A stretch of DNA of 64,000 nucleotides from an uncultured Planctomycetia bacterium. GTDB taxonomy: Bacteria > Omnitrophota > Gorgyraeia > 2-02-FULL-51-18. The notes beneath the pieces are model-generated. The model saw only the letters and a program-made list of their open reading frames with translations, was not told where the DNA came from and did not search any database. The translations under genes and the position numbers were made by a program. This document shows positions 26,035 to 41,289 of this stretch, piece after piece; position 1 is the first letter of the stretch; the number at the start of each line of letters is the position of its first letter. The DNA lies in the NCBI GenBank assembly GCA_964642015.1, contig CAZXLF010000004.1:115001-179000 (forward strand), written 5' to 3'.

Positions 26035-26424
26035 TTAAGCCCGCTCGAGGAAATCGGTGATCATTTGACGGAGTTTGTCCATCAGCGGAAAAGGTTTTTC
26101 AAGAAATTCGACATGTCCCAATGACAACGCCTCATTGCGCTTCTCCTCATTGGCATAACCAGTCATGAACATGATCGGAAGGTTCGGATAAACAGCGCGG
26201 ATCGCTCTGGCGAATGCTACGCCGTCGCCACTGGGCATCACGATATCGGTGATCAACAGATCATAGCGAACTGAGCCCATGATGATCGCATTCAGCGCTT
26301 CCGCTGAGTTCTGAAAAAAATCGGTATTCAGTTTCATCTGCTTCATCATCGAGGAAAAAACTTTTAGAATCACTTTGTCATCATCTACAACGGCGATCTT
26401 CAACTTTGTCAGGTCTATAGCCAT
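26035..26424 (-). CDS. single-domain response regulator (receiver only)
   Basis: 129 aa. DD…D phospho-acceptor pattern (VVDDDKVI…LLITDIVMP…K). Confidence 0.75.
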   Translation of the reverse strand: MAIDLTKLKIAVVDDDKVILKVFSSMMKQMKLNTDFFQNSAEALNAIIMGSVRYDLLITDIVMPSGDGVAFARAIRAVYPNLPIMFMTGYANEEKRNEALSLGHVEFLEKPFPLMDKLRQMITDFLERA

Positions 26425-26462
26425 ATCATGATCTCCTTAAGTAATTTATTGGGCATCCCATG

Positions 26463-28097
26463 CTATTTGTTCAAAGTTTTAGCGATCACAGCTGCAAATG
26501 TTGATATCGCATACGGTTTAGTAAGATAAGCAAGTGCCCCGTCGTGCATGAGATCCTCGCTAGTTCCCTCGGAAGTATAACCGCTGGACACAACAATCTT
26601 CGCATTCGGATTCACTTCTAAAATTTTTCTCAAGGTTTCACGGCCGGTCAATTTCGGCATCGTCATATCAAGAACCACCAAACGGATCTTTTGGTAGTTA
26701 TCTTTATAAACCCGCACCGCCTCCATTCCGTCTTTAGCCATGATAACTTGGTAACCTAATTTTTCCAAAAAAAGGCGCCCGACATTGCGCACATTCTCCT
26801 CGTCATCAGCAAAAAGGATCAACCCTTCTCCGCGCGGCAAAGCGGATGTTTCTTGACTGGGCCGTTGCTCCACCTTAGCGTCTGGTTTAGCCGGCAAATA
26901 GATAGTAAATACGCTGCCTTTGTCTACTTCGCTGGCCACATCGATCCAACCTTTGTGAGCGGTCACAATATTCAGCGCCATGGCCAGACCCAATCCGCTG
27001 CCGCCTTCCTTTCTCTTCGTGGTATAAAACGGCTCGAAAATATGCGGGAGAACATCCGGAAGGATTCCGCTCCCCGTATCTTGCACGCGTATAAAAATGT
27101 AATGATTTGAATGAGAGTGGTGCTGAAGTTGCTCCGCGGTCAACTGAGCATTGCCGGCCTCGATCAAAAGCTGCCCGCCGGTAGATAACATCGCATCCTT
27201 GGCGTTTGTCACCAGATTCATCAGCACCGTCTCTATTTCGCCTTCATTGCCATAGACGGGCCATAAGTCGTCATCGATGTAAACAGCCATCTCTATGGTC
27301 TTTGGCAACACCGTCTGAAAAAGGGTCCGGGTCTCATTAAGGATATTCTGAAGCTTGATCATCGATTTTTGATGGGATGACGGCCGGCTGACATCCTTGA
27401 TCTTCTTGACGATATCGACACAACGTTGCGCAGCCTGTTGCGCTTCCACCAATATATCTATATCCACCTCCTGCGAATTATCTTTATGCTCTCTGATAAA
27501 AATATCCAAATAGCCCAGAACAGGTGTCATCTGATTGTTCAGATCATGGGCAATACCTCCCGCGAGGGTCCCGATAAGTTCCATTTTTTGCGCCTGCAAA
27601 AGCTGCGCTTCCAACTTCTTCTTTTCCGTGATATCCAGCTTGATACCGAGCAAGCTCAACACTTTACCTTCACCGCTCAAAATCGGAACGATCGTGGCAG
27701 ATTCCCAGTAGAAGGTCCCGTTTTTATGCTTATTGTGAAATTCTCCGCGCCATTCGCGGCCGTTCAAAACCGTATCCCACAACTCCTGGAATATGGCCTG
27801 CGGCATTTCTCCTGATTTTAAAATACGGGGATTTTTGCCAAGCACCTCTACTGCGGAATAACCGCTGACCTCCTCAAAATTCTTGTTAACAAATTGAATG
27901 TTCCCTTTGGGATCCGTGATCATAATGCTTGCCGGTGTCTGCTCAACGGCCGTGGACAAACGCTGTAATTCGTTTTCCGTCGCTTTGTGTTCCGCTGTGC
28001 GCCGAGAAAGTTGGGCCCGTAAAATGATGGTCCATGCTGTTAGCAAAACCAAAATGGCCGCAAAAACCAAGCAGATGACCCAAAAGAAAGCGCTCAT
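26463..28097 (-). CDS. hybrid sensor histidine kinase (TM, PAS, HisKA, HATPase, C-terminal receiver)
   Basis: H-box AHDLNNQMTPVLGY. G-box GSGLGLAMALNIV. C-terminal receiver ILFADDEENV…VLDMTMP. Confidence 0.85.
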   Translation of the reverse strand: MSAFFWVICLVFAAILVLLTAWTIILRAQLSRRTAEHKATENELQRLSTAVEQTPASIMITDPKGNIQFVNKNFEEVSGYSAVEVLGKNPRILKSGEMPQAIFQELWDTVLNGREWRGEFHNKHKNGTFYWESATIVPILSGEGKVLSLLGIKLDITEKKKLEAQLLQAQKMELIGTLAGGIAHDLNNQMTPVLGYLDIFIREHKDNSQEVDIDILVEAQQAAQRCVDIVKKIKDVSRPSSHQKSMIKLQNILNETRTLFQTVLPKTIEMAVYIDDDLWPVYGNEGEIETVLMNLVTNAKDAMLSTGGQLLIEAGNAQLTAEQLQHHSHSNHYIFIRVQDTGSGILPDVLPHIFEPFYTTKRKEGGSGLGLAMALNIVTAHKGWIDVASEVDKGSVFTIYLPAKPDAKVEQRPSQETSALPRGEGLILFADDEENVRNVGRLFLEKLGYQVIMAKDGMEAVRVYKDNYQKIRLVVLDMTMPKLTGRETLRKILEVNPNAKIVVSSGYTSEGTSEDLMHDGALAYLTKPYAISTFAAVIAKTLNK

Positions 28098-28483
28098 TGT
28101 GAATGTCCGGGAAATTGGAGCAGAAGAATATTTCTCAAATAATCGAAATCGATCGGCTTAGTCACATAACCCCACGCGCCGAGATCGAACGCACGCCTAC
28201 CCTCTTCCTCATCGTGGCGACCTGTCACAATGATCACAGGTAAACCTGGTCTTACGGATTTAATTTTCTTTAGAATTTCCAGACCGCTCATATCAGGCAA
28301 GCCTAGATCGCAAAGGACAACAGAAACGCTTGTTTTTTTGATCCTTTCAAGCGCAGCGTTGCCAGTCGCTTCACCAATAACAGCATAACCCTCTGTCTCA
28401 AGATTCAATTTGATCAAATGAACTATAGAAGGCTCATCTTCAACAACTAAAATAACTATTGGGAAGGGCTTTTCTTGTGGCAT
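28094..28483 (-). CDS. single-domain response regulator (receiver only)
   Basis: 129 aa. VVEDEPSI…VLCDLGLPDMSG…K pattern. Confidence 0.75.
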   Translation of the reverse strand: MPQEKPFPIVILVVEDEPSIVHLIKLNLETEGYAVIGEATGNAALERIKKTSVSVVLCDLGLPDMSGLEILKKIKSVRPGLPVIIVTGRHDEEEGRRAFDLGAWGYVTKPIDFDYLRNILLLQFPGHSQ

Positions 28484-31145: not shown

Positions 31146-31188
31146 AATGAACGGCTATTATACAACGGGAAGCGGTTAAGACTAAGCC

Positions 31189-31242
31189 AAAAAATGACGC
31201 CGCAATAGCCGTTTCAAAACAAAAAGCATTAAAAGTGCGGCG
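31189..31242 (-). terminator. hairpin plus U-run just after the nitroreductase stop, inside the mgtA leader
   Basis: On the minus strand: TGCGGCG (31242→31236), a 31-nt loop, CGCCGCA (31204→31198), then TCATTTTTT. An alternative 10-bp pairing AACGGCTATT/AATAGCCGTT would occlude the mgtA start region. Confidence 0.35.
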
Positions 31243-31243
31243 A

Positions 31244-31894: not shown

Positions 31895-32887
31895 TTATTT
31901 TGAATGATCTCCGGATTCTTCAGGGACAATAAATAATGACATTTTTTTATAATTCCTTAAAAGGATAACTTCTACAGCCACGCCGAATTTTTTTTCCGTA
32001 AGCAGCCGGTGTAAATCGTCGACAGTCTGCACATTCTGATCCCCAAATCGTATTAAAATATCCCCTTCAACGATGCCTGCTTTTTCCGCGGGACTGTCTT
32101 CAGCAACAGAAATCACCAGTATCCCTTGATCTGAAACAAGGTTATTAAACCTAACTATCTGCCGGTGAAGCGGGACATTTTGCCCCATGATCCCCACATA
32201 ACCGCGGTTGATCTTGCCGTCTTTGATCAAACGGCCTGCCACATAAACAGCTGTATTACTGGCTATCGCAAAACTGATCCCTTGCGCCGGCGCAATGATC
32301 GCTGTATTCACGCCAACCACATTTCCGCTAGAAGTCACGAGCGGTCCGCCTGAATTTCCGGGATTCAGCGCCGCATCCGTTTGAATGATATTTTGGATCA
32401 GCCGGCCTGAACTCGAACGTAAAGACCTGCCCATCGCGCTAACCACCCCGGCCGTGACTGTATATTGAAAACCAAAAGGATTTCCGACAGCGATCACAAG
32501 CTGGCCGACTTTAAGCGCTTCGGAATCTCCGAAAACCGCGGATGAAAGCTTCGGCGCAGTAATACGGATAACTGCCAGATCCGTGTCAGGATCATCTCCG
32601 ACGAGATCGGCCCGGTAATCATTACCGTCGGAAAGAGTTACATGAATACTGTCAGAGCCGTGAACAACATGGCTATTCGTTAAAATGAACCCATCGCTTG
32701 TAAATATAAATCCCGAACCACCTCCCTTTGCAGGCTGCGATACACGCGAACCGCTGTTGTTTTTTATCACGTCGATATTAACAACGGACGGATTGATCTT
32801 TTCAGCGGCTGTAATAACAGTGTTGGAATAATCGTCCAGATCCTGTCCGTCTTGATGCCGAATTTCCCGCACTTCTTTTGACATCAT
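31895..32887 (-). CDS. HtrA/DegP-like serine protease with C-terminal PDZ domain
   Basis: Catalytic His in TNSHVVHG, catalytic Ser in GNSGGPLV, PDZ signature GIVEGDILIRFGDQNV. No obvious signal peptide. Confidence 0.75.
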   Translation of the reverse strand: MMSKEVREIRHQDGQDLDDYSNTVITAAEKINPSVVNIDVIKNNSGSRVSQPAKGGGSGFIFTSDGFILTNSHVVHGSDSIHVTLSDGNDYRADLVGDDPDTDLAVIRITAPKLSSAVFGDSEALKVGQLVIAVGNPFGFQYTVTAGVVSAMGRSLRSSSGRLIQNIIQTDAALNPGNSGGPLVTSSGNVVGVNTAIIAPAQGISFAIASNTAVYVAGRLIKDGKINRGYVGIMGQNVPLHRQIVRFNNLVSDQGILVISVAEDSPAEKAGIVEGDILIRFGDQNVQTVDDLHRLLTEKKFGVAVEVILLRNYKKMSLFIVPEESGDHSK

Positions 32888-32957: not shown

Positions 32958-33278
32958 TTACTTCTTACCTTCCGTCATGATACGTGTTATTTTCTCCTTC
33001 AGATCCATCTTTGCTTTACCTTGCGCCAGCATGGATTCCCATTGCACTCCCATCGCTTCGATCACCGCATCAGCCATTTTATCCATCTTGGCCCCCCATG
33101 CCTTATGGATCTTCGCTTTTAAGACTTCCACATGAGCTTCCTTAATGGCTTGATGAAACGCACAACCCCACATCTCCGTGACCTTTTCTATAGGACAGCA
33201 AGTCGAGGACTGCGTCGAACAGCTCTGTTCTTCATGGGTATCGCATGAACCGGTTTGAGACGAACACTTATTTTCCAT
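32958..33278 (-). CDS. hypothetical small protein with Cys-rich N-terminus and helical C-terminus
   Basis: 106 aa. Seven Cys in the first 40 residues (CSSQTGSCDTHEEQSCSTQSSTCCPIEKVTEMWGC). Confidence 0.45.
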   Translation of the reverse strand: MENKCSSQTGSCDTHEEQSCSTQSSTCCPIEKVTEMWGCAFHQAIKEAHVEVLKAKIHKAWGAKMDKMADAVIEAMGVQWESMLAQGKAKMDLKEKITRIMTEGKK

Positions 33279-33333
33279 TGTAACGCTCCTTTGTTTTTAT
33301 CCGCCGAACCTCAGCAGATCGTTTTAATTTACA

Positions 33334-33352
33334 TTCCAACCAGTTGGTATGT
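33334..33352. promoter_or_regulatory. TetR-operator-like imperfect palindrome (site A) upstream of the Cys-rich gene
   Basis: TTCCAACCAGTTGGTAT shares the core CCAACCAGT(T/C)GGTA with site B. Confidence 0.35.
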
Positions 33353-33368
33353 AATTTGAGCAAAAAAA

Positions 33369-33980
33369 TTATTTTTTGAAAAGCGACCTTATATATTCCT
33401 TATAATGGATCAACCCATTCTGTCTTGCGGTTGAGTTTTGTTTTACTTTTGAGACTAATAAAGTGCCCTCCAGCACTACTACAAAATGGTCCGCCAGACT
33501 TGCCGGATCCCAATCCGCCTTCGGCGCATATTTTGCTTTGGCCTGCTGCAGGTCGGATTTTAGGACTTCGGACATTTCATGGAACGCATGGCCGCAAATC
33601 GACCGGATCTCAGGATGAGTATCTGAGAGTTCCTGCGCCATACTGCCGACTAAACATCCCCTGCCGTTATTTTTCTTCATTTTCTCTATCATAAAATCCA
33701 AAAATCCGTAAACTCTCTGCAAAGGATCTTTTTCCGCCAGACAACAGCCGGATCTCATAGCCTCTTTGTTATGAGAACAATAACGCCTGAGAAGTTCTAC
33801 ACCCAATTCTTCTTTACTGTCAAAATAATGAAAAAAACTTCCCTTGGTCAGCTTTGCCTTCCGGCATATATCATCGACCGTCGTGCCGGCAAAACCTTTC
33901 TCCAGGACCAGTCCTTGCGCGGTGTCCAAGAGTTTCTGCTTCGTTGGGTGATCTTCCATCAGGGTTTTCATACATACCAA
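33369..33980 (-). CDS. TetR/AcrR-family transcriptional regulator
   Basis: N-terminal HTH (GFAGTTVDDICRKAKLTKGSFFHYFDSKEELGVEL). The first ATG is at M4 (33969-33971); the track start at 33980 is a TTG. Confidence 0.8.
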   Translation of the reverse strand: MVCMKTLMEDHPTKQKLLDTAQGLVLEKGFAGTTVDDICRKAKLTKGSFFHYFDSKEELGVELLRRYCSHNKEAMRSGCCLAEKDPLQRVYGFLDFMIEKMKKNNGRGCLVGSMAQELSDTHPEIRSICGHAFHEMSEVLKSDLQQAKAKYAPKADWDPASLADHFVVVLEGTLLVSKVKQNSTARQNGLIHYKEYIRSLFKK

Positions 33981-33990
33981 CCAGTCGGTA
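33975..33990. promoter_or_regulatory. TetR-operator-like imperfect palindrome (site B) abutting the tetR start
   Basis: TACCAACCAGTCGGTA, 12 of 16 positions palindromic. Same core as site A. Confidence 0.35.
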
Positions 33991-34147
33991 CAATTATACT
34001 ATTTCGGCCAAGTTTGTCAAGTCTGCTGTCAACTCTTAGCGGTTCCTGATAATGCCCTCGTCAGACAAAAGCTGTTTGACCTTCTTAGCCTTATACAGTC
34101 AATATAAAAAGGGTCGCCGGTAACTCATGCACACCGCTTCTTTGAAA

Positions 34148-34537
34148 TCAATACTCCACCCATCGATCCATCTTACCGTCATAATCAGAATCTTTTTCGA
34201 CCTTCACCAGCTTGCCGTCTTTATAATAGCCGATCTCATCAACAACACCATCAAAATTAGTATCTGCCTCTGTCCGTACAATCTGACCATTCTCATAATA
34301 TTGCCACTGATCCGGCTTTCCATCGTGATTGGTATCCAACGCGATAACCTTTGGGGATGGAGCATTCCTCGAGGATTGGTCTTCGGCATAACTAGAATGA
34401 AAGCCACCGGCGATCATTACTATGGCAGCCAGCCCTGCGATTAAAATATACTTCGTAAATTTGTTTCTATTCTGATGTTTTAACAGCACTTTATACCTCC
34501 TGTTTTGAGCGTTATCGACCAAAACTGATATTTTCAT
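34148..34537 (-). CDS. membrane-anchored or secreted protein with three tandem DxNxDG (EF-hand-loop-like) repeats
   Basis: The three repeats are DTNHDGKPDQWQYYENGQIV, DTNFDGVVDEIGYYKDGKLV and DSDYDGKMDRWVEY. A hydrophobic N-terminal segment precedes them. Confidence 0.5.
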   Translation of the reverse strand: MKISVLVDNAQNRRYKVLLKHQNRNKFTKYILIAGLAAIVMIAGGFHSSYAEDQSSRNAPSPKVIALDTNHDGKPDQWQYYENGQIVRTEADTNFDGVVDEIGYYKDGKLVKVEKDSDYDGKMDRWVEY

Positions 34538-34626
34538 ACTTCAAACCTGACCATTATAAACCAGAAATAAATAAAGCCGTAGATTTTTTCTACGGCTTTA
34601 TTAGATCGCTTTGTTGAAAAATACCT

Positions 34627-34986
34627 TTATTCCAGTTCCACTGTCTTAACGAAAACCTTACCCTCTTTTTCGGTATGACGAACTTTCGCTTTATCGCCCA
34701 CTTTAATATCAGTCCAGGTGACCTGATTCCCGCCCCTCCAAATAGAACTGGAAGCAGTATCGATCATGATCACCCATTCTCTTCCGACGGCATCCTTGAT
34801 CTTAAGCCAAGGTGCAGTGACGCTTGTATTAACCGCAGAAACAGTGCCTTCGGAAGTGCTGATCACAGGAGTAGGCGCCGATGTCACCGCCGTAGATGCG
34901 GGAGGCGTTGTTTCGGCAAAACTCATGGCGGAAACACCGCAAAAAGCGATAGTCGACACCAAAGTTAACACCCGCTTTCTGTGCAT
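34627..34986 (-). CDS. hypothetical secreted protein
   Basis: 119 aa. Signal peptide, a Thr/Ser/Ala-rich linker, then a beta-rich C-terminal domain (…WRGGNQVTWTDIKVGDKAKV…). Confidence 0.45.
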   Translation of the reverse strand: MHRKRVLTLVSTIAFCGVSAMSFAETTPPASTAVTSAPTPVISTSEGTVSAVNTSVTAPWLKIKDAVGREWVIMIDTASSSIWRGGNQVTWTDIKVGDKAKVRHTEKEGKVFVKTVELE

Positions 34987-35017
34987 TCAGGATCTCCTTC
35001 TTACAAATTATAGTGAA

Positions 35018-35251
35018 TTAGGCAGCCGGTGATGCTGAACTCGCCGGAGCTGGTGAAGGTTTCGCTTTTTTCTTTTTAACACCCGGCTTTTTCTTCAGGT
35101 GTTTCTTTTTTTCGCCCTTCTCGCCCTTATCGGTTTTCTGATCCGTAGCAGTAGTGGTTTCCGCAGCAATGGCAGACGCCTGATAAACTAATGCCGCCCC
35201 AAAAAGAAACGCTAAGACTAATACCAATCCTTTTAATTTTTTCATGGTCAT
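35018..35251 (-). CDS. hypothetical small secreted Lys-rich protein
   Basis: 77 aa. Signal peptide followed by KGEKGEKKKHLKKKPGVKKKKAKP. Could be spurious. Confidence 0.3.
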   Translation of the reverse strand: MTMKKLKGLVLVLAFLFGAALVYQASAIAAETTTATDQKTDKGEKGEKKKHLKKKPGVKKKKAKPSPAPASSASPAA

Positions 35252-35307
35252 CTCTCCCTTTGCTTTCGATTTTATACTATTAAAATGACGTAGGGATGAA
35301 TTTAAGA

Positions 35308-36786
35308 TTACAAATCGTTCATCTGTATAATAGCGCCTTCCGGAGGGATCGCAGGAAACGAAATCAAGAAAGTCGCCCCCGGTCCGGAAGGATTCTGAAC
35401 TTCTATCCGCCCCTTATGCGATTCGGCGATCCATCGGCACAAACCCAAACCTAATCCAACACCCGAAGAGCTGCCGTTGTTTGGTTTTGTACGGCTGAAG
35501 AACTTATCAAATATCTTGGGCAATTCTTCCGCAGGAATCCCTGAGCCCGTATCTTGGACCACGATACATACTTCGCCGTTACGCCGAGCCACTTCAACAT
35601 GTATCTTTCCCTGTGCAGGCGTATGTTTGACGGCATTATCCAGGAAATTAGAGACCAAACGCTCCAGAAGTCTTTTTTCTCCCCGGATAAGAGAAACGTC
35701 ACGCTCCACAAAATCGATCGTGATCCCTTTAGCGGAAGCCACTTTCTGCCAAACATAAACCATCGGCCTGACCAGCTCTCCCAACTGAATATCTTTCCAC
35801 TCAATGGCCTCTTCGCCTTCTTCGGCATAGGCCAACGCCAGAAGCTGCTCCACGATATTCGCTAATTCGGTCAACACATCAAGCTGTGACCGCAGAAGCT
35901 CCCTGTATTCCTCATTATTCCGCGGTTTGCGCAACGTAACCTCAAGCTCCCCTTTCATGACACTGAGAGGAGTGCGCAATTCATGTGCCGCTGCCGCACT
36001 GAATTGACGTACGCGTTTGAAAGATCTATCCAATCTCGACAGCAGTCCATTGAAAGTTTCAGCCAATTGCTCCAATTCGTCATGTGTATTCGGTACTTCG
36101 ATACGCTCATGAAGACGCTGAATGCCGATCAACCGCACTTTCCTGATCATTCGATCCACGGGCCGCAAAGCCGCAGTGGCTAAAAACCATCCGATGGCAC
36201 TAGTGAACAAGGCCGTTAAAGGAACAAGCCAAAAAAGCCAGCTACGCAATTGTTCGAGCGAAGTTTCGGCCTGCCGGCGTGAAACGGCTATTTGTACAAT
36301 ATAAAGCAACTGCCCATCCTCAACGATCGGACGTGTAATCAGCTGAAATCCGCTTTTACCTTGTTTGAAAGTTTGGTAACTGGTGCGTTTTTTGAACGCT
36401 TTTTTTATGATCGATTCTTCAAGAGGCAGATTTAATTCAGAGAAATGGTCTGAAGCAGCTAAGACCGTTCCATCATGTCCGACCAGACGCAAGCTATGAT
36501 CTTCCAATTCGTTGGTTTCATTAGACCAGCGGTCGATCAAAGCTTGAAACCGCCCATACTTGATCTCTTTTTGGATCGTGTCCGTTTTGTAAACTTCGTG
36601 TTCGGCTTTCCAAAAAGCAAAGATATTATCCGCCGTCGCATCAGCTTGAGCGGCTAAAGTTTCATTAATATGACGGTTCAGATTTGACGAAACCTTCGAA
36701 TAAAGCGTGTAACTAAACAGGCAAAGGATGACCGTGAGGATCCCGATATACCATAAGGTCAGAACAAATCGGATCGAGCGGATCAC
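35308..36786 (-). CDS. sensor histidine kinase (2 TM helices, HAMP, HisKA, HATPase)
   Basis: H-box AAAHELRTPLS. N-box NFLDNAVKHT. G-boxes DTGSGIP and GVGLGLGL. Overlaps its response regulator by 4 nt. Confidence 0.85.
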   Translation of the reverse strand: MIRSIRFVLTLWYIGILTVILCLFSYTLYSKVSSNLNRHINETLAAQADATADNIFAFWKAEHEVYKTDTIQKEIKYGRFQALIDRWSNETNELEDHSLRLVGHDGTVLAASDHFSELNLPLEESIIKKAFKKRTSYQTFKQGKSGFQLITRPIVEDGQLLYIVQIAVSRRQAETSLEQLRSWLFWLVPLTALFTSAIGWFLATAALRPVDRMIRKVRLIGIQRLHERIEVPNTHDELEQLAETFNGLLSRLDRSFKRVRQFSAAAAHELRTPLSVMKGELEVTLRKPRNNEEYRELLRSQLDVLTELANIVEQLLALAYAEEGEEAIEWKDIQLGELVRPMVYVWQKVASAKGITIDFVERDVSLIRGEKRLLERLVSNFLDNAVKHTPAQGKIHVEVARRNGEVCIVVQDTGSGIPAEELPKIFDKFFSRTKPNNGSSSGVGLGLGLCRWIAESHKGRIEVQNPSGPGATFLISFPAIPPEGAIIQMNDL

Positions 36787-37463
36787 GATTTATCAGGTTC
36801 TTGCAAAATATAACCGCTGCCCCGGACAGTTTGCAGCAATCGAGGATGAAAATCGCCATCGATCTTCCGGCGCAAGCGGGCAACCAAAACATCGATCACA
36901 TTGGAGAAAGTATCAAAGTCGTGTTCCCATACTTTTTCAGCGAGAGCAGAACGTGTCACGACCTGATTCTTGTGGCGGATCATGAACTCCAGCAGAGAAT
37001 ATTCACGACTGGTCAAAAATATTTCCTTACCGGCACGCAAAACTTGACGTTTTAAAGTGTCGACCTGAAGATCCGCGACGCGAAGGACTGTTTCCAGAAG
37101 ATCGCCTCTTCGGCGAAGCAGCGCGCGCACGCGCGCCAAAAACTCCTCGAACGAAAACGGCTTCACCAAATAGTCATCGGCGCCCGAATCCAATCCTGTA
37201 GCTTTGTCCGACGGCTTATCTTTAGCCGTCAGGATCAAAACAGGCACGGTCACCCGTTCTCGGCGGAGATCCCTTAAAACTTCAAGACCGCTTTTTTTAG
37301 GCAACAACAAGTCTAGGATAATGAGATCGTAAGGATTAAGTTGGGCTAGGTAGAGCCCCTCTTCTCCGTTTTTCGCAAGATCAACCGTATAATTTTCTTC
37401 TTTCAATCCGCGGCGGATGAAACTTGCCATTCGCGCGTCATCTTCTACCAATAAAATGCGCAT
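36783..37463 (-). CDS. OmpR/PhoB-family response regulator
   Basis: Receiver domain (MRILLVEDD…DLIILDLLLP) and winged-helix DNA-binding domain (…LSRTEYSLLEFM…VRGSGY). Confidence 0.9.
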   Translation of the reverse strand: MRILLVEDDARMASFIRRGLKEENYTVDLAKNGEEGLYLAQLNPYDLIILDLLLPKKSGLEVLRDLRRERVTVPVLILTAKDKPSDKATGLDSGADDYLVKPFSFEEFLARVRALLRRRGDLLETVLRVADLQVDTLKRQVLRAGKEIFLTSREYSLLEFMIRHKNQVVTRSALAEKVWEHDFDTFSNVIDVLVARLRRKIDGDFHPRLLQTVRGSGYILQEPDKS

Positions 37464-37469
37464 ATCAAG

Positions 37470-37832
37470 TCAATCAGACTTATCCTTATTTTCAAGGAGA
37501 TCCAATTCTTGTTCCAATTTTTCAAACCCTACTTTACAGAGTTTTCCAAAAAAAGGTCCGAACAAAAATCCCAAAGCCGCTACAACAGATCCCACGGAGA
37601 CAAAAGCCATCAAAGACGCAAAGATCTTCCCTGCCACAGTGACTGGAGCCAATGCCGGCCCTTGGGCTGTCGCGATCATGCTCATAAAATAAAAAGCGTC
37701 TAAATAAGATAATTTTTCGAGATGATGCATGCCGACGGTCCCGACAAGCATCACCGAAGCAACTAAAACAAAAGACATGATGCCCCGCCGCGCGGCAGAA
37801 TGATAATGATGAAGTCTTCTTTGTTTATTCAT
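37470..37832 (-). CDS. minimal 2-TM ion-channel-like protein (K+-channel pore-loop-like)
   Basis: 120 aa. TM1, a pore-helix-like segment YLDAFYFMSMIATAQGP, then TM2. The stop is 7 nt before the response-regulator start. Confidence 0.4.
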   Translation of the reverse strand: MNKQRRLHHYHSAARRGIMSFVLVASVMLVGTVGMHHLEKLSYLDAFYFMSMIATAQGPALAPVTVAGKIFASLMAFVSVGSVVAALGFLFGPFFGKLCKVGFEKLEQELDLLENKDKSD

Positions 37833-37924
37833 TGATTTGGGTGATCCATTATTATATCAAATAAAAAGAGGTTGCGCGAAACCCTTCTTCCGCACAACCT
37901 CTAAAACATCTGTGGATCGGATAA

Positions 37925-38320
37925 TTACTGCTTTAAAACGCCTTTGAACCACGAATCGGTGGATTTGCCGTTCTCCTGGGAAATAAAAGTCCCCTCTATC
38001 TTGTCGCCTATCACCGCACCTTTCCAATCCATCTTTCCACCTGCAGCGTTGGTTATCTGGCTTTCAAAATTCACTGTTTTGCCCTGCGCCGTTGTCTGAT
38101 AATCTCCGCTGCCATAACCAAAGGTACTGCAAAGAGCCGAAACAAACTTCCCGTCCTTAAACACAAAATCATCCTTAGTGCCGGCAGCCTCACCTTTGTT
38201 GCCGAATTCTCCGGTAAAAATCTTACCATCCAAACTACCGGCGGCTGAAACCGGTCCGCACAACAGAATAAAAAAAGATATCACTAAAAACGATGGAAAC
38301 CATACTCTGGTCAATTTCAT
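37925..38320 (-). CDS. hypothetical secreted protein
   Basis: 131 aa. Signal peptide. Gly/Lys-rich and beta-rich. No family recognised. Confidence 0.4.
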   Translation of the reverse strand: MKLTRVWFPSFLVISFFILLCGPVSAAGSLDGKIFTGEFGNKGEAAGTKDDFVFKDGKFVSALCSTFGYGSGDYQTTAQGKTVNFESQITNAAGGKMDWKGAVIGDKIEGTFISQENGKSTDSWFKGVLKQ

Positions 38321-38351
38321 TTTAATTCCCTCATTTATAATTTTATCTGGC

Positions 38352-39113
38352 TTACTCCCAAACTTCCTCTTCCGATATCACATTGCCGTCGGAATCATAT
38401 TTACGAATGATCTTTTTCTTGGGCTGAGACGTCGTTGAACTACTCTGGTTCACATAACCCTGATTCTGATTTGAATATTGAGCAGGATACTGCTGATACT
38501 GCGGTGGTGGTGGCGCTTGCTGAACATACACCGTCTGAGGTCTCTGAGGTTGAGACGGCGTCGTCAGCGTATCTAATAAAGCGCCGCCGATCACATTGGT
38601 CCCCGCGCCGATCAATGCACCTTTTCCGGCATTTCCCCCGGATGCGCCGGCTGCAATAGCACCCGTGCCCGCACCGAGCAGACCTTGCTTCAATATTTTT
38701 TTATTGGGATCTTCTTGAGGAGGAGGTTCATAAGCAGGCGCTTGCTGGACATAGACCGGTTGAGACTCTGCAGGATAATAACCTCCTTGTTGAGGCGCAG
38801 AGTAAGATTGAACATACTGTGGTTGCTGCTGAACATAAACCACTTGCTGAGGTTGTTGTTGCGGCTGAGAAGGCCCGGTCAAAGTATCCAAAAGCGCACC
38901 TCCAATGATATTGGTCCCCGCGCCGATCAAGGCTCCTTTTCCGGCTTTGCCGCCTGAAGCGCTCGCCGCGATCGCGCCGGTACCTGCGCCGAGCAAGCCT
39001 TGTTTCAAAATATTTCTCGAACTGTCATCATCAGCATGCACTTTAGGCATTGACCATAAAACCGTCATTGCAGCAACAATTAAAACGATACTTGGATTTT
39101 TTATTGATCTCAT
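38352..39113 (-). CDS. secreted glycine-zipper protein with internal tandem duplication
   Basis: 253 aa. ILKQGLLGAGTGAIAA(S/G)ASGG(K/N)AGKGALIGAGTN(I/V)IGGALLDTLT occurs twice, each copy followed by a Q/P/Y-rich linker. Confidence 0.55.
   Translation of the reverse strand: MRSIKNPSIVLIVAAMTVLWSMPKVHADDDSSRNILKQGLLGAGTGAIAASASGGKAGKGALIGAGTNIIGGALLDTLTGPSQPQQQPQQVVYVQQQPQYVQSYSAPQQGGYYPAESQPVYVQQAPAYEPPPQEDPNKKILKQGLLGAGTGAIAAGASGGNAGKGALIGAGTNVIGGALLDTLTTPSQPQRPQTVYVQQAPPPPQYQQYPAQYSNQNQGYVNQSSSTTSQPKKKIIRKYDSDGNVISEEEVWE
38440..39020. repeat. ~315-bp tandem duplication inside the glycine-zipper gene
   Basis: The DNA segment 38569-38703 is ~85% identical to 38884-39018. The flanking Q/P-rich coding linkers are also duplicated. 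Confidence 0.6.
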
Positions 39114-39146
39114 TGCTTTGCTCCTTCAAGTCCTTTCATTTGTTTC

Positions 39147-39413
39147 TCAACCAACCTTAACTTCGACCGTATCAGCCACATTGCTTCCCGGTTTCAGGGA
39201 CGCTTTCACGACAGTGCCGTTCTGCAACGTTGCAATGATCTTCGGATGAACGATGACGGCTTTGTCGGTCCCCGTTTCTTTATTCTTCACAACGATCTCA
39301 TTCTTGGTCTTATCGATAGATTCTATCGGTCCTTGGACCACTTCGGCATAGCTTGAAACAGCAAGTCCTGCGAATATCAATACCGCAAAAATCGAAGATG
39401 TTATTTTCTTCAT
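39147..39413 (-). CDS. hypothetical small secreted protein
   Basis: 88 aa. Signal peptide plus a small beta-rich domain (…VVKNKETGTDKAVIVHPKIIATLQNGTVVKASLKPGSNV…). Confidence 0.45.
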   Translation of the reverse strand: MKKITSSIFAVLIFAGLAVSSYAEVVQGPIESIDKTKNEIVVKNKETGTDKAVIVHPKIIATLQNGTVVKASLKPGSNVADTVEVKVG

Positions 39414-39495
39414 TTCTATTCTCCTTCCGCTAGATCAAACTTTGATTATACTCAAATTTTACATTACACAACATAACAAAAAGATTAATTTAAAA

Positions 39496-41289
39496 TTACA
39501 AATCATTCATCTGGGACCACTTTTTCAGAGCGTTGAAGAATATGAAGAGCGTGCTGCCGACCATCACACAGATCAACGCCACATTCAGATGGACAATGAA
39601 CGCGGTTGCGGATTTGGGCCAATAATGTTTTAGGATCATTTCTGAAGCGGCTGTCACTGTGGTCACTGCGACAAAGCTCACCGGCAAAACAGTCGTCCAA
39701 ATATACCGGCTCTTTTTCATCCGGATAAGGATCGTGGTACCGATGATCAGCGCAATAACAGCCAGTAATTGATTGGCGATCCCGAACATCGGCCAGATCG
39801 TGCTGATGCTGGCATTCCATATCAAATATCCCCACGACAACACTACGACAAGGCTCGCCAAAATATTGCCAGGGAGCCAATCTGGTTTTCTAAAGGGCGC
39901 ATAAATTCTTCCCAAAAATTCCTGCAGAATGAAACGTGCTATCCTTGTGCCTGCGTCGATCGTTGTCAGGATAAAAAGCGCCTCGAACATGATCGCAAAA
40001 TGGTACCAATATTTCATCAGACCTTTGAGTCCGGGGATTGCGCTGAAGATCTGTGCCATTCCAACAGCCAAAGTTACGGCGCCGCCGGTACGGCCCGCCA
40101 GATTTTTTTCACCCACCTGTTGCGTTAGCTCGGCCAGATTAACGGGTTGATTTAATCCGCCTCCGAGCGTCTGATAGACAGCCGGCGGTACATTAATCGC
40201 ATAATAATCAGCCGGCTGCAGCGAACAAACCGCGATCAGACACACAACAGCTACAAGGGACTCCAGAAGCATGCAGCCATAGCCGATCGAGCGTGCATGG
40301 CATTCGTTCGAGATCATCTTCGGCGTCGTCCCAGACGAAACTAACGCGTGAAATCCGGATATCGCGCCGCACATGATCGTGATGAAGCAAAATGGCCACA
40401 CTTTTCCCGGTACGATCGGTCCACCGCCGTGAATATACGGCGTGATCGCGGGAAAATGAAGTTTCGGATTCACAAAACAAATACCGGCGATCAGAAAAAA
40501 AATAGTTCCAAGTTTCATGTATGAACTTAAGTAATCACGCGGCGCAAGTAAAAGCCACACAGGCAGTACGGAAGCAAAAAAACCGTAAACCGCGATCGCA
40601 ATAATAATGGCTCGCTTATCCATCAAAAAAAAGTGATTCAGCCAGGAAATATCCGGCACGAACCGCCCGAAGACGACCGCCGCCAAAAGTGCGCCAACCC
40701 CCAAAATACTGGCGATGCGGATCGCTTGATGCGATCCTTTGTTCACCGCAAATACATAAAATCCCATGACCATCGCGATCGGAATGCTCATCGCGATAGT
40801 GAAAGTACCCCAGGAGCTTTCTGCTAATGCGTTGACAACCACAAAGCCAAGACCCGCAAGGGCCACGATCACAATAAAAAGGATCGCCACTGCACAAGCC
40901 AATCCTGTAGATGTATTTATTTCTTCCTTTGCGATCTCCGCAAGCGAGCGACCTTCGCGTCTCGTCGACGCGACCAATATCACGAAATCCTGTACAGCAC
41001 CGCCGAGAACCGCGCCCACCACGATCCAAATCAACCCCGGTAAATAGCCAAACTGCGCTGCCAGCACAGGTCCGATCAACGGGCCCGCACCTGAGATCGC
41101 AGCAAAATGATGTCCAAAAAGGACCCATTTATTCATCGGATAATAATTCTGTTCGTCGCGGTGAGTATAAGCAGGCGTCGTCCGATCTTTGTCCAATACA
41201 AAAACTTTGGCGGCAAGAAATGCGCTGTAATAACGATATCCAAGCGTGAAGATCCCTAATGTCAGGATCATGATAGGCAAGGCAAACAT
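39496..41289 (-). CDS. cstA: carbon starvation protein A (peptide/pyruvate transporter)
   Basis: 597 aa. N-terminus [66 protein letters not shown] is the CstA signature. Confidence 0.9.

Follow-up and report, generated by a model that had tools for sequence, protein, structure and literature searches.

The question raised by this locus is whether seven small secreted or membrane proteins, encoded around an OmpR-type two-component system (TCS) on a 64-kb stretch of an Omnitrophota contig (GenBank CAZXLF010000004.1; the whole stretch is referred to here as the window), form a single envelope regulon with that system. A first-pass annotation, made from the DNA letters alone, had described them as one island of seven genes and had likened the arrangement to an envelope-stress or ion-sensing regulon. 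Comparison with relatives, however, splits the locus into modules, and it is therefore not one island: it is a mosaic around a conserved envelope-signalling module. The regulon part of the proposal survives in reduced form, as a credible exported-protein regulon of four of the seven genes (sec88, Gzip253, Krich77 and sec119; Table 1) plus an inserted gene, sec131, whereas the channel-like protein chan120 and the DxN protein belong to separate modules.

All nine open reading frames (ORFs) between 34148 and 39413 lie on the minus strand, and the earlier inventory stands at unchanged coordinates, save for small details of the DxN protein given below. An N-terminal hydrophobic segment is present in all seven small proteins, in agreement with the claim that each carries a signal peptide or anchor, and chan120 has two transmembrane (TM) segments. 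The genes of the sensor histidine kinase (HK) and the response regulator (RR) overlap by 4 nt, and 6 nt separate the stop codon of chan120 from the start codon of the RR gene downstream. The seven small ORFs are real genes, because homologues exist for each of them and because the four that are comparable with a sister genome (loci L002 and L061-L066; HK 77-79% identical to the window HK) are under purifying selection. In that comparison the synonymous sites are saturated (proportion of differences, pS, 0.56-0.77), and the nonsynonymous proportion, pN, is well below pS in sec88 (pN 0.21, pS 0.75; 57-61% identity), Gzip253 (pN 0.15; 71-77% identity), Krich77 (pN 0.25, pS 0.67; 58% identity) and sec119 (pN 0.28). 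Homologues of the other three comprise at least 528 clusters at 60-76% identity for chan120, 689 representatives for sec131, and proteins of 83%, 56% and 46% identity for the DxN protein. The sec131 family emerged in an exhaustive search; in a word-indexed homology search the protein matched itself alone. The earlier remark that none has a clear family assignment holds for curated libraries, apart from chan120 and sub-threshold glycine-zipper matches, but each protein does have a detectable sequence family.

The closest loci all come from metagenome-assembled genomes (MAGs) of Candidatus Omnitrophota, and identical copies of the proteins are present in public assemblies, one of them on a 218-kb contig. 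The sister genome retains the core order sec88–Gzip–RR–HK–Krich77–sec119, within the run sec82–Gzip253–RR–HK–81-aa basic peptide–sec110–mgtA–MarR–OEP; sec131 and the channel gene are absent between Gzip and RR, and the DxN, TetR, cys106, HtrA and nitroreductase genes are absent between the sec119 orthologue and mgtA. On a contig whose sec119-family protein (P0006) is 51% identical to sec119, the order is 42-aa ORF–RR–HK–82 aa–sec122, with the 82-aa gene in the position of Krich77, and in L003 (HK 50% identical) it is glycosyltransferase–RR–HK–150-aa Ala/Lys-rich basic secreted protein–sec124. The minimal conserved unit is RR–HK–basic peptide–sec119, found in the sister genome and in these two more distant relatives, and a sec119-family gene was always found next to this TCS (window, sister genome, P0006 contig and L003). 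The pair sec88–Gzip is attached upstream of the TCS in the sister genome only.

Four small genes therefore travel with the TCS, while the channel, sec131 and DxN genes do not. Sec131 and chan120 are lineage-specific insertions here, and channel homologues in three other lineages adjoin lipases, pirins and transporters, and stand beside a TCS in none. The DxN gene belongs to a neighbouring DxN–TetR–cys106–HtrA block, outside the TCS unit: a terminator precedes it, it has its own -10-like TATAAT upstream, and the block is conserved elsewhere without a TCS: in L067 the order is Gzip homologue (66%)–MprF-C-like gene–DxN (83%)–TetR (73%)–cys106 (75%)–HtrA (74%), with no TCS within the run from Gzip to HtrA. 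GC content and skew are unremarkable across 34148-39413, a search for tRNA and tmRNA genes, a hallmark of island integration, gave none, and no paralogues of the island proteins were found elsewhere in the window.

Such modularity lends some colour to the view that there is no regulon at all, and that unrelated neighbours have collected in a variable region while the shared sequence element described below is a promoter- or terminator-proximal motif unlinked to the RR. The channel, sec131, the DxN–TetR–HtrA block and a receiver–PAS-kinase–receiver trio are indeed present or absent independently among close relatives, and the channel homologues occur elsewhere in unrelated contexts. Yet the unit RR–HK–basic peptide–sec119 persists in relatives whose HK is as little as 50% identical, and the element itself keeps its place with respect to the end of the HK gene even where HK identity is just 27-30%, with an 11-bp phasing of hexamers just upstream of a -10 sequence that is the architecture expected of an OmpR/PhoB-family site. 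A mere gathering of neighbours is consequently considered very unlikely.

The element, ATGAAY-N3-TTGTAAT-N4-AATTMAT-N6-GTYAT, is common to the regions upstream of sec88 (site P1) and of Krich77 (site P2). It comprises four hexamers with ~11-bp phasing, spans 29-38 bp and ends ~11 nt before a -10-like TAnAAT. The distance from P1 to the start codon of sec88 is 88 nt, and that from P2 to Krich77 is 62 nt; each site lies upstream of its gene and overlaps the stop codon of another, CstA in the case of P1 and HK in that of P2. Allowing up to two mismatches, the 29-bp core pattern has two matches in the 64 kb (39501-39473 and 35313-35285), against 0.11 expected. The independent support for the box comes from orthologous and distant loci, and what is informative within the window is that there is no third site. 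Both P1 and P2 recur at orthologous positions of the sister genome despite the saturated synonymous divergence. Furthermore, in six of 11 distant loci a related element with at most three mismatches is found no more than 50 nt behind the HK stop codon, compared with a background of 0.0016 per 110 nt. In L003 it lies 17 nt after the stop codon, and in L005, L006, L009, L014 and L043, whose kinases are 27-30% identical to the window HK, a degenerate TTCTAAT-N4-TTTTAAT-N4-TTTTAAT is found 13-50 nt after it. At L004 it is followed by a 58-aa secreted ORF and then by RR–HK.

In the window the element takes in the stop codons of two unrelated ORFs, CstA and HK, each of which falls inside a predicted regulator half-site, whereas the sister copy lies outside ORFs; the conservation is therefore one of DNA and not of protein. 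CstA and HK both end in …QMNDL*, the two frames running into the common element CAGATGAAYGATTTGTAAT (39496-39510 and 35308-35322, minus strand). The positions and the conservation of the motif are established, as are the genes, their synteny, the selection on them and the protein folds. A box was also looked for upstream of chan120, sec131, DxN, TetR, cys106, HtrA and mgtA, and none was found. A three-mismatch match inside the coding region of the sister mgtA was taken as chance.

It is likely that the element is the box of this RR, since head-to-tail hexamers in place of a -35 element are what OmpR/PhoB-family activators use. The PmrA box, for example, consists of CTTAAT and CCTAAG half-sites arranged head-to-tail (PMC3973317) and is described as taking the place of the -35 element (PMC10570014). 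The window sites resemble PmrA/PhoB-type promoters in their tandem hexamers, their 11-bp spacing and their distance of ~11 nt from a -10-like TAnAAT. They differ in half-site sequence (TTGTAAT, AATTCAT and GTCAT here, degenerate TT[CT]TAAT in distant relatives) and in having three to four hexamers rather than two, and the window box is a candidate read from sequence.

The genes that stand behind the post-HK box in distant relatives vary: they encode a receiver of a single domain, a small secreted protein rich in His and Lys, a secreted Hsp20, a CDF or an MFS transporter, or an HtrA/DegP protease. Together with the adjacency of MgtA in the sister genome, they point to a theme of envelope protein and cation homeostasis. 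A set recurs after kinases 28-30% identical to the window HK at L006 7547-9947, L007 7804-9130 and L014 7580-9509: a single-domain receiver, a small secreted peptide rich in His and Lys, and an Hsp20 (alpha-crystallin) with a signal peptide for export; a CDF transporter, an MFS transporter or HtrA comes next. L007 belongs to the Omnitrophota, L014 is a delta-proteobacterial MAG, and L006 is from an unclassified uncultured bacterium.

Four units of transcription are predicted: sec88–Gzip–sec131 from P1, channel–RR–HK from a constitutive-looking promoter, Krich77–sec119 from P2, and DxN alone. The ends of the P1 and P2 units agree with strong intrinsic terminators placed immediately behind sec131 and sec119. 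The extended -10 TGATATAAT is the likely promoter of chan120–RR–HK, and sec131 is probably co-transcribed from P1. Promoters were assigned by position and conservation only; a generic promoter scan returned 8 sites in the region compared with 7.7 expected, none of them statistically prominent. In the sister genome there is no terminator between Gzip and RR, and P1 would for that reason also autoregulate the TCS there. The insertion in the window genome appears to have cut the TCS off from its autoregulated promoter.

Together, these observations favour, with modest confidence, a TCS-centred envelope regulon with boxes at P1 and P2, exported effectors and a rewiring by gene insertion, in which regulator binding, operon structure, effector roles and stimulus are inferred. 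The HK would sense the periplasm, and the phosphorylated RR, of OmpR/PhoB type, would bind the 11-bp-phased hexamer box that replaces the -35 element at the two promoters. P1 would then drive sec88, Gzip253 and, in the window genome, the inserted sec131, and P2, inside the 3' end of the HK gene, would drive Krich77 and sec119 up to the terminator. Of the products, Gzip253 might stabilise the membrane or outer membrane, the disordered basic peptide Krich77 might buffer polyanions or cations, and the OB-fold proteins might bind ligands or partners; feedback of the exported proteins onto the HK is conceivable. In the sister genome, P1 would also transcribe RR–HK, giving positive autoregulation. 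In the window genome, sec131, the channel gene, a terminator and a promoter would have come in between and abolished this autoregulation, leaving RR–HK to be transcribed with the channel from the constitutive-looking extended -10.

Several points weigh against this scheme. The box pattern was derived from the two window sites that it then finds, and the orthologous and distant stretches that support it are AT-rich intergenic DNA. Binding of the regulator and transcription from the boxes are deduced from sequence, and the roles given to the effectors are drawn by analogy, not homology, as Gzip253 is no lipoprotein and the sequence of sec119 matches neither BOF nor CusF. Among the relatives, the sister genome alone has the pair sec88–Gzip ahead of the TCS, and the Gzip homologue of L067 stands among other genes. 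Finally, the HK sensor domain has almost no invariant residues across the clade and, compared with PDB sequences, gave no meaningful match, the sensor domains of CusS, PhoQ and others not being recovered. With no solved relative and nearly no invariant residues in this domain, the stimulus is a guess, the best being a cation- or metal-linked envelope stress. A literature search on Omnitrophota two-component systems found nothing relevant.

The TCS itself is of the OmpR/PhoB family, with Response_reg (98.8 bits), Trans_reg_C (89.5), HisKA (46.7), HATPase_c (97.9) and HAMP (31.2) all above their Pfam cutoffs. Its best NCBIfam models are of the heavy-metal subfamily: cztS_silS_copS (TIGR01386) for the HK, with residues 6-478 aligned to profile positions 5-457 of 457, and cztR_silR_copR (TIGR01387) for the RR, likewise over the full length. 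These matches raise the possibility of a Cu/Ag/Zn/Cd resistance sensor of the CusRS/SilRS/CzcRS kind, with the small proteins as chaperones or sponges: sec119 and sec88 would be CusF/SilF-like OB-fold binders and Krich77 would resemble SilE or PcoE. The CDF transporter and His-rich small peptides at a distant relative locus would also fit. However, both scores fall under the curated cutoffs (287.4 bits vs 292.55 for the HK and 259.0 vs 279.2 for the RR). In heavy-metal kinases such as CusS the periplasmic domain supplies Met/His (or Cys) residues as ligands for the metal, and that of the window HK contains neither Met nor Cys; it has five His residues, which are conserved in the sister but not in L003, the 50% relative, or L004.

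CusF/SilF metallochaperones are OB-fold proteins with a His/Met/Met(/Trp) site for Cu(I)/Ag(I). Sec119 combines a signal peptide with an invariant KVRHT motif and a confident OB-fold model, but it has no Met/His cluster, the OB folds of single-stranded-DNA-binding proteins and aminoacyl-tRNA synthetases score above SilF, and neither Pfam nor NCBIfam gave a BOF match with E up to 1. Sec119 was accordingly rejected as a CusF/SilF metallochaperone, there being no metal-ligand motif. Krich77, with a net charge of +12, has a single His and similarly lacks such a motif; analogous small basic secreted proteins are present at L003, L006 and L007. In contrast to the CusRS, SilRS and PcoRS systems with their CusF/SilF and SilE/PcoE proteins, no efflux pump of the RND type, CopA-type copper ATPase or multicopper-oxidase gene lies nearby, and the neighbouring P-type ATPase is of the Mg type. 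A heavy-metal resistance sensor is therefore judged unlikely.

A parallel to the envelope regulon favoured here is offered by systems that couple a TCS to a periplasmic OB-fold protein, for which there is precedent (PMC5636140). In ygiW(visP)-qseBC and Vibrio cholerae VC1638/39-VCA0732, an OmpR-family TCS is reported to control a periplasmic OB-fold (BOF) protein, with a link to the envelope and antimicrobial-peptide response (PMC5636140; see also PMC4660874 and PMC5053249). The window has the same pairing of an OmpR/PhoB-type TCS with a small secreted OB-fold protein, sec119. Unlike the known proteins, sec119 has no BOF match and possesses a long Thr/Ser/Pro/Ala-rich linker and its own KVRHT motif, and its gene lies downstream of the HK, behind an internal predicted promoter and with a basic peptide. 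Sec88 may share the OB fold of sec119. Its sister orthologue, sec82, which precedes the glycine-zipper gene, has weak DUF5666 and PilY2 matches below the Pfam gathering score, and hhalign gives a 28% probability for sec88 and sec119 as paralogues, partly arising from the signal peptides.

Gzip253 contains two near-identical ~50-aa modules, each followed by a Q/P/Y-rich tract. A GxxxG-type zipper is visible twice in its sequence, there is no lipobox Cys, and its Pfam matches are below cutoff (Gly-zipper_OmpA, PF13436, 22.4 vs 27 bits; Gly-zipper_YMGG, PF13441, 15.2 vs 28.9). SlyB, a glycine-zipper protein, is part of the PhoPQ envelope-stress response, and the PhoPQ regulon of Enterobacteria, with SlyB and MgtA, resembles the present locus in that a TCS for cation or envelope stress is associated with an envelope protein of the glycine-zipper kind and with a P-type ATPase for Mg2+. 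The window MgtA is indeed a Mg-type P-type ATPase (TIGR01524, 1034.2 bits vs a cutoff of 610.75), and the sister mgtA, 83% identical to it, directly follows sec110. It could hence be argued that the system is a functional analogue of PhoPQ that senses Mg2+ or Ca2+ limitation, with a SlyB-like stabiliser, MgtA and a Ca-loop protein next door, the latter being the DxN protein with its EF-hand-like D-x-N-x-D-G loops.

Conversely, mgtA has its own promoter-like TATAAT and no box in either genome, sec110 of the sister is followed by a terminator-like hairpin, in the window there are five genes between sec119 and mgtA, and the DxN gene is part of another conserved block. No similarity to PhoQ is detectable in the sensor domain, and Gzip253 departs from SlyB in lacking the lipobox Cys and in being a tandem duplication with Q/P/Y-rich tracts. 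A PhoPQ analogue is thus regarded as quite unlikely. The TATAAT lies ~12 nt upstream of the mgtA start codon at a similar position in the window and in L061 (7995-8079); this spacing would imply a near-leaderless transcript, with no room for a Mg2+-sensing leader or mgtL-type peptide, and an Rfam scan of the whole window at the gathering threshold returned nothing, hence no M-box or riboswitch by mgtA or the island. The likenesses to SlyB/PhoPQ and to the TCS–OB-fold systems, being analogies, would concern the mode of working, not family membership, which was found for the OmpR-type TCS, Ion_trans_2 and MgtA only.

The last two genes to be accounted for in this part of the locus are the inserted ones. 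Judged by its sequence, chan120 is a member of the K+-channel pore superfamily: it passes the Pfam Ion_trans_2 model (PF07885) with 22.8 bits against a cutoff of 22.5, and its family profile aligns with the NaK/MthK pores over TM1, pore helix, filter and TM2 (E 2.7e-8), that is, over the whole pore module. At the filter position, however, the motif FYFMSMIATAQGP has T-A-Q-G-P, invariant in 22 family members, instead of TVGDG or TVGYG, and a K+-selective channel identified by a T-V-G-Y-G filter was for that reason rejected. A conserved HHYHSP N-terminus, the absence of a gating domain and unusually high conservation of the ~115-aa family (60-76% identity over hundreds of clusters) further set it apart from the NaK/MthK-pore family. 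One public chan120 gene call, of 102 aa, omits the conserved N-terminus. No curated name was found for the family members (P0010-P0128), and a literature search with the chan120 motif returned nothing relevant.

The sec131 family (P0130-P0279) is mostly secreted and ~130 aa long, some members having two or three tandem copies, and shares the motif LDGKTF.G…D.F.F.dG.F.S..C..yGF…Y…W.G.v.G. No Pfam model covers the family. An AlphaFold2 (AF2) model predicts with confidence an eight-stranded avidin- or calycin-like barrel. It would be a long shot to propose that chan120 serves as an ion-flux route or co-sensor feeding the TCS and the exported effectors, with sec131 as a new periplasmic calycin-like ligand-binding family recruited to the regulon.

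The Omnitrophota are uncultivated, and how they sense their envelope and surroundings is nearly undescribed; the locus offers a concrete circuit, in which two promoters carry a candidate box and the conserved exported targets number four, and an apparent case of promoter rewiring through gene insertion. The overall logic, in which small periplasmic effectors are encoded beside a TCS, is well established, and current understanding is not overturned. What is new is this familiar arrangement in an understudied phylum, one defined candidate operator and three uncurated protein families that merit description: the TCS-linked sec119 OB-fold family, the sec131 β-barrel family and the T-A-Q-G-P mini-channel family.

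Table 1. Positions of the genes and candidate control elements of the locus and its neighbourhood, in window coordinates
Feature	Position	Strand	Description
P1 candidate box	39473..39510	-	ATGAAT-N3-TTGTAAT-N4-AATTAAT-N6-GTTAT, then -10-like TAAAAT/TATAAT
sec88	39147-39413	-	88-aa secreted small β protein; first gene of predicted P1 unit; ribosome-binding site GGAAGGAG
Gzip253	38352-39113	-	253-aa secreted protein; two glycine-zipper modules
sec131	37925-38320	-	131-aa secreted protein; predicted 8-stranded β-barrel
Intrinsic terminator after sec131	37867..37902	-	15-bp stem and T-run
Extended -10 (likely promoter)	37851..37859	-	18 nt upstream of chan120 start; read from sequence
chan120	37470-37832	-	120-aa 2-TM pore-only cation-channel homologue (NaK/MthK-like)
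RR	36783-37463	-	OmpR/PhoB-family response regulator; Response_reg and Trans_reg_C
HK	35308-36786	-	sensor histidine kinase; TM1, ~145-aa periplasmic domain, TM2, HAMP, HisKA, HATPase
P2 candidate box	35285..35322	-	ATGAAC-N3-TTGTAAT-N4-AATTCAT-N6-GTCAT; -10-like TAAAAT 35274-35269
Krich77	35018-35251	-	77-aa secreted, low-complexity, strongly basic Lys-rich peptide
sec119	34627-34986	-	secreted; Thr/Ser/Pro/Ala-rich linker and C-terminal OB-fold domain
Intrinsic terminator after sec119	34570..34602	-	end of TCS module
DxN protein	34148-34537 as ORF; likelier 34148-34489	-	secreted; EF-hand-like D-x-[ND]-x-D-G loops
TetR promoter, sigma-70 type	34020-33993	-	TTGACA-16-TATAAT, 12/12
Regions upstream of TetR and cys106 with the inverted repeat	33985-34020; 33279-33390	-	TACCRAC-TG-GTTGGWA
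TetR gene	33369-33980		
cys106	32958-33278	-	cytoplasmic, 106 aa; Cys-rich N-terminus (C5, C12, C20, C27, C28)
HtrA-like protease	31895-32887	-	no N-terminal signal or anchor
mgtA upstream region	31146-31243	-	TATAAT ~12 nt upstream of start
Receiver–PAS hybrid HK–receiver trio	26035-28483	-	between mgtA and MarR

The DxN protein differs in two respects from its first description. Of the three DxNxDG repeats that had been reported, two are of this form and the third is DxDxDG, and the likelier start is the GTG at 34489, which follows AGGAGG and yields a protein of 113 aa, as in two gene callers. The repeats resemble the Ca loops of EF-hands or dockerins. The protein had no match among PDB sequences, nor to Pfam DUF6802 at E up to 1, whereas a 243-aa DxN relative in L068, 55% identical to it over 62 aa, matches DUF6802 with 38.3 bits vs 27. 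At L068 2093-7896, this 243-aa protein, with about nine DxNxDG-type repeats, is encoded between ExbB/ExbD/TonB-like genes and a TonB-dependent receptor, a setting that hints that DxN-repeat proteins may act in the periplasm with TonB systems.

Beyond the DxN gene, the trio of receiver, PAS hybrid histidine kinase and receiver is not present in the sister genome and is a further lineage-specific insertion in the same region. The TetR gene has a complete match to a sigma-70 promoter, and the inverted repeat is located just upstream of both the TetR and the cys106 starts; it is probably the TetR operator, and cys106 (and HtrA) would then be targets of TetR. No family match was obtained for cys106. 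In L067 (3256-4633), a cys106 homologue of 75% identity is kept together with the HtrA-like protease, an unusual pairing under a TetR regulator.

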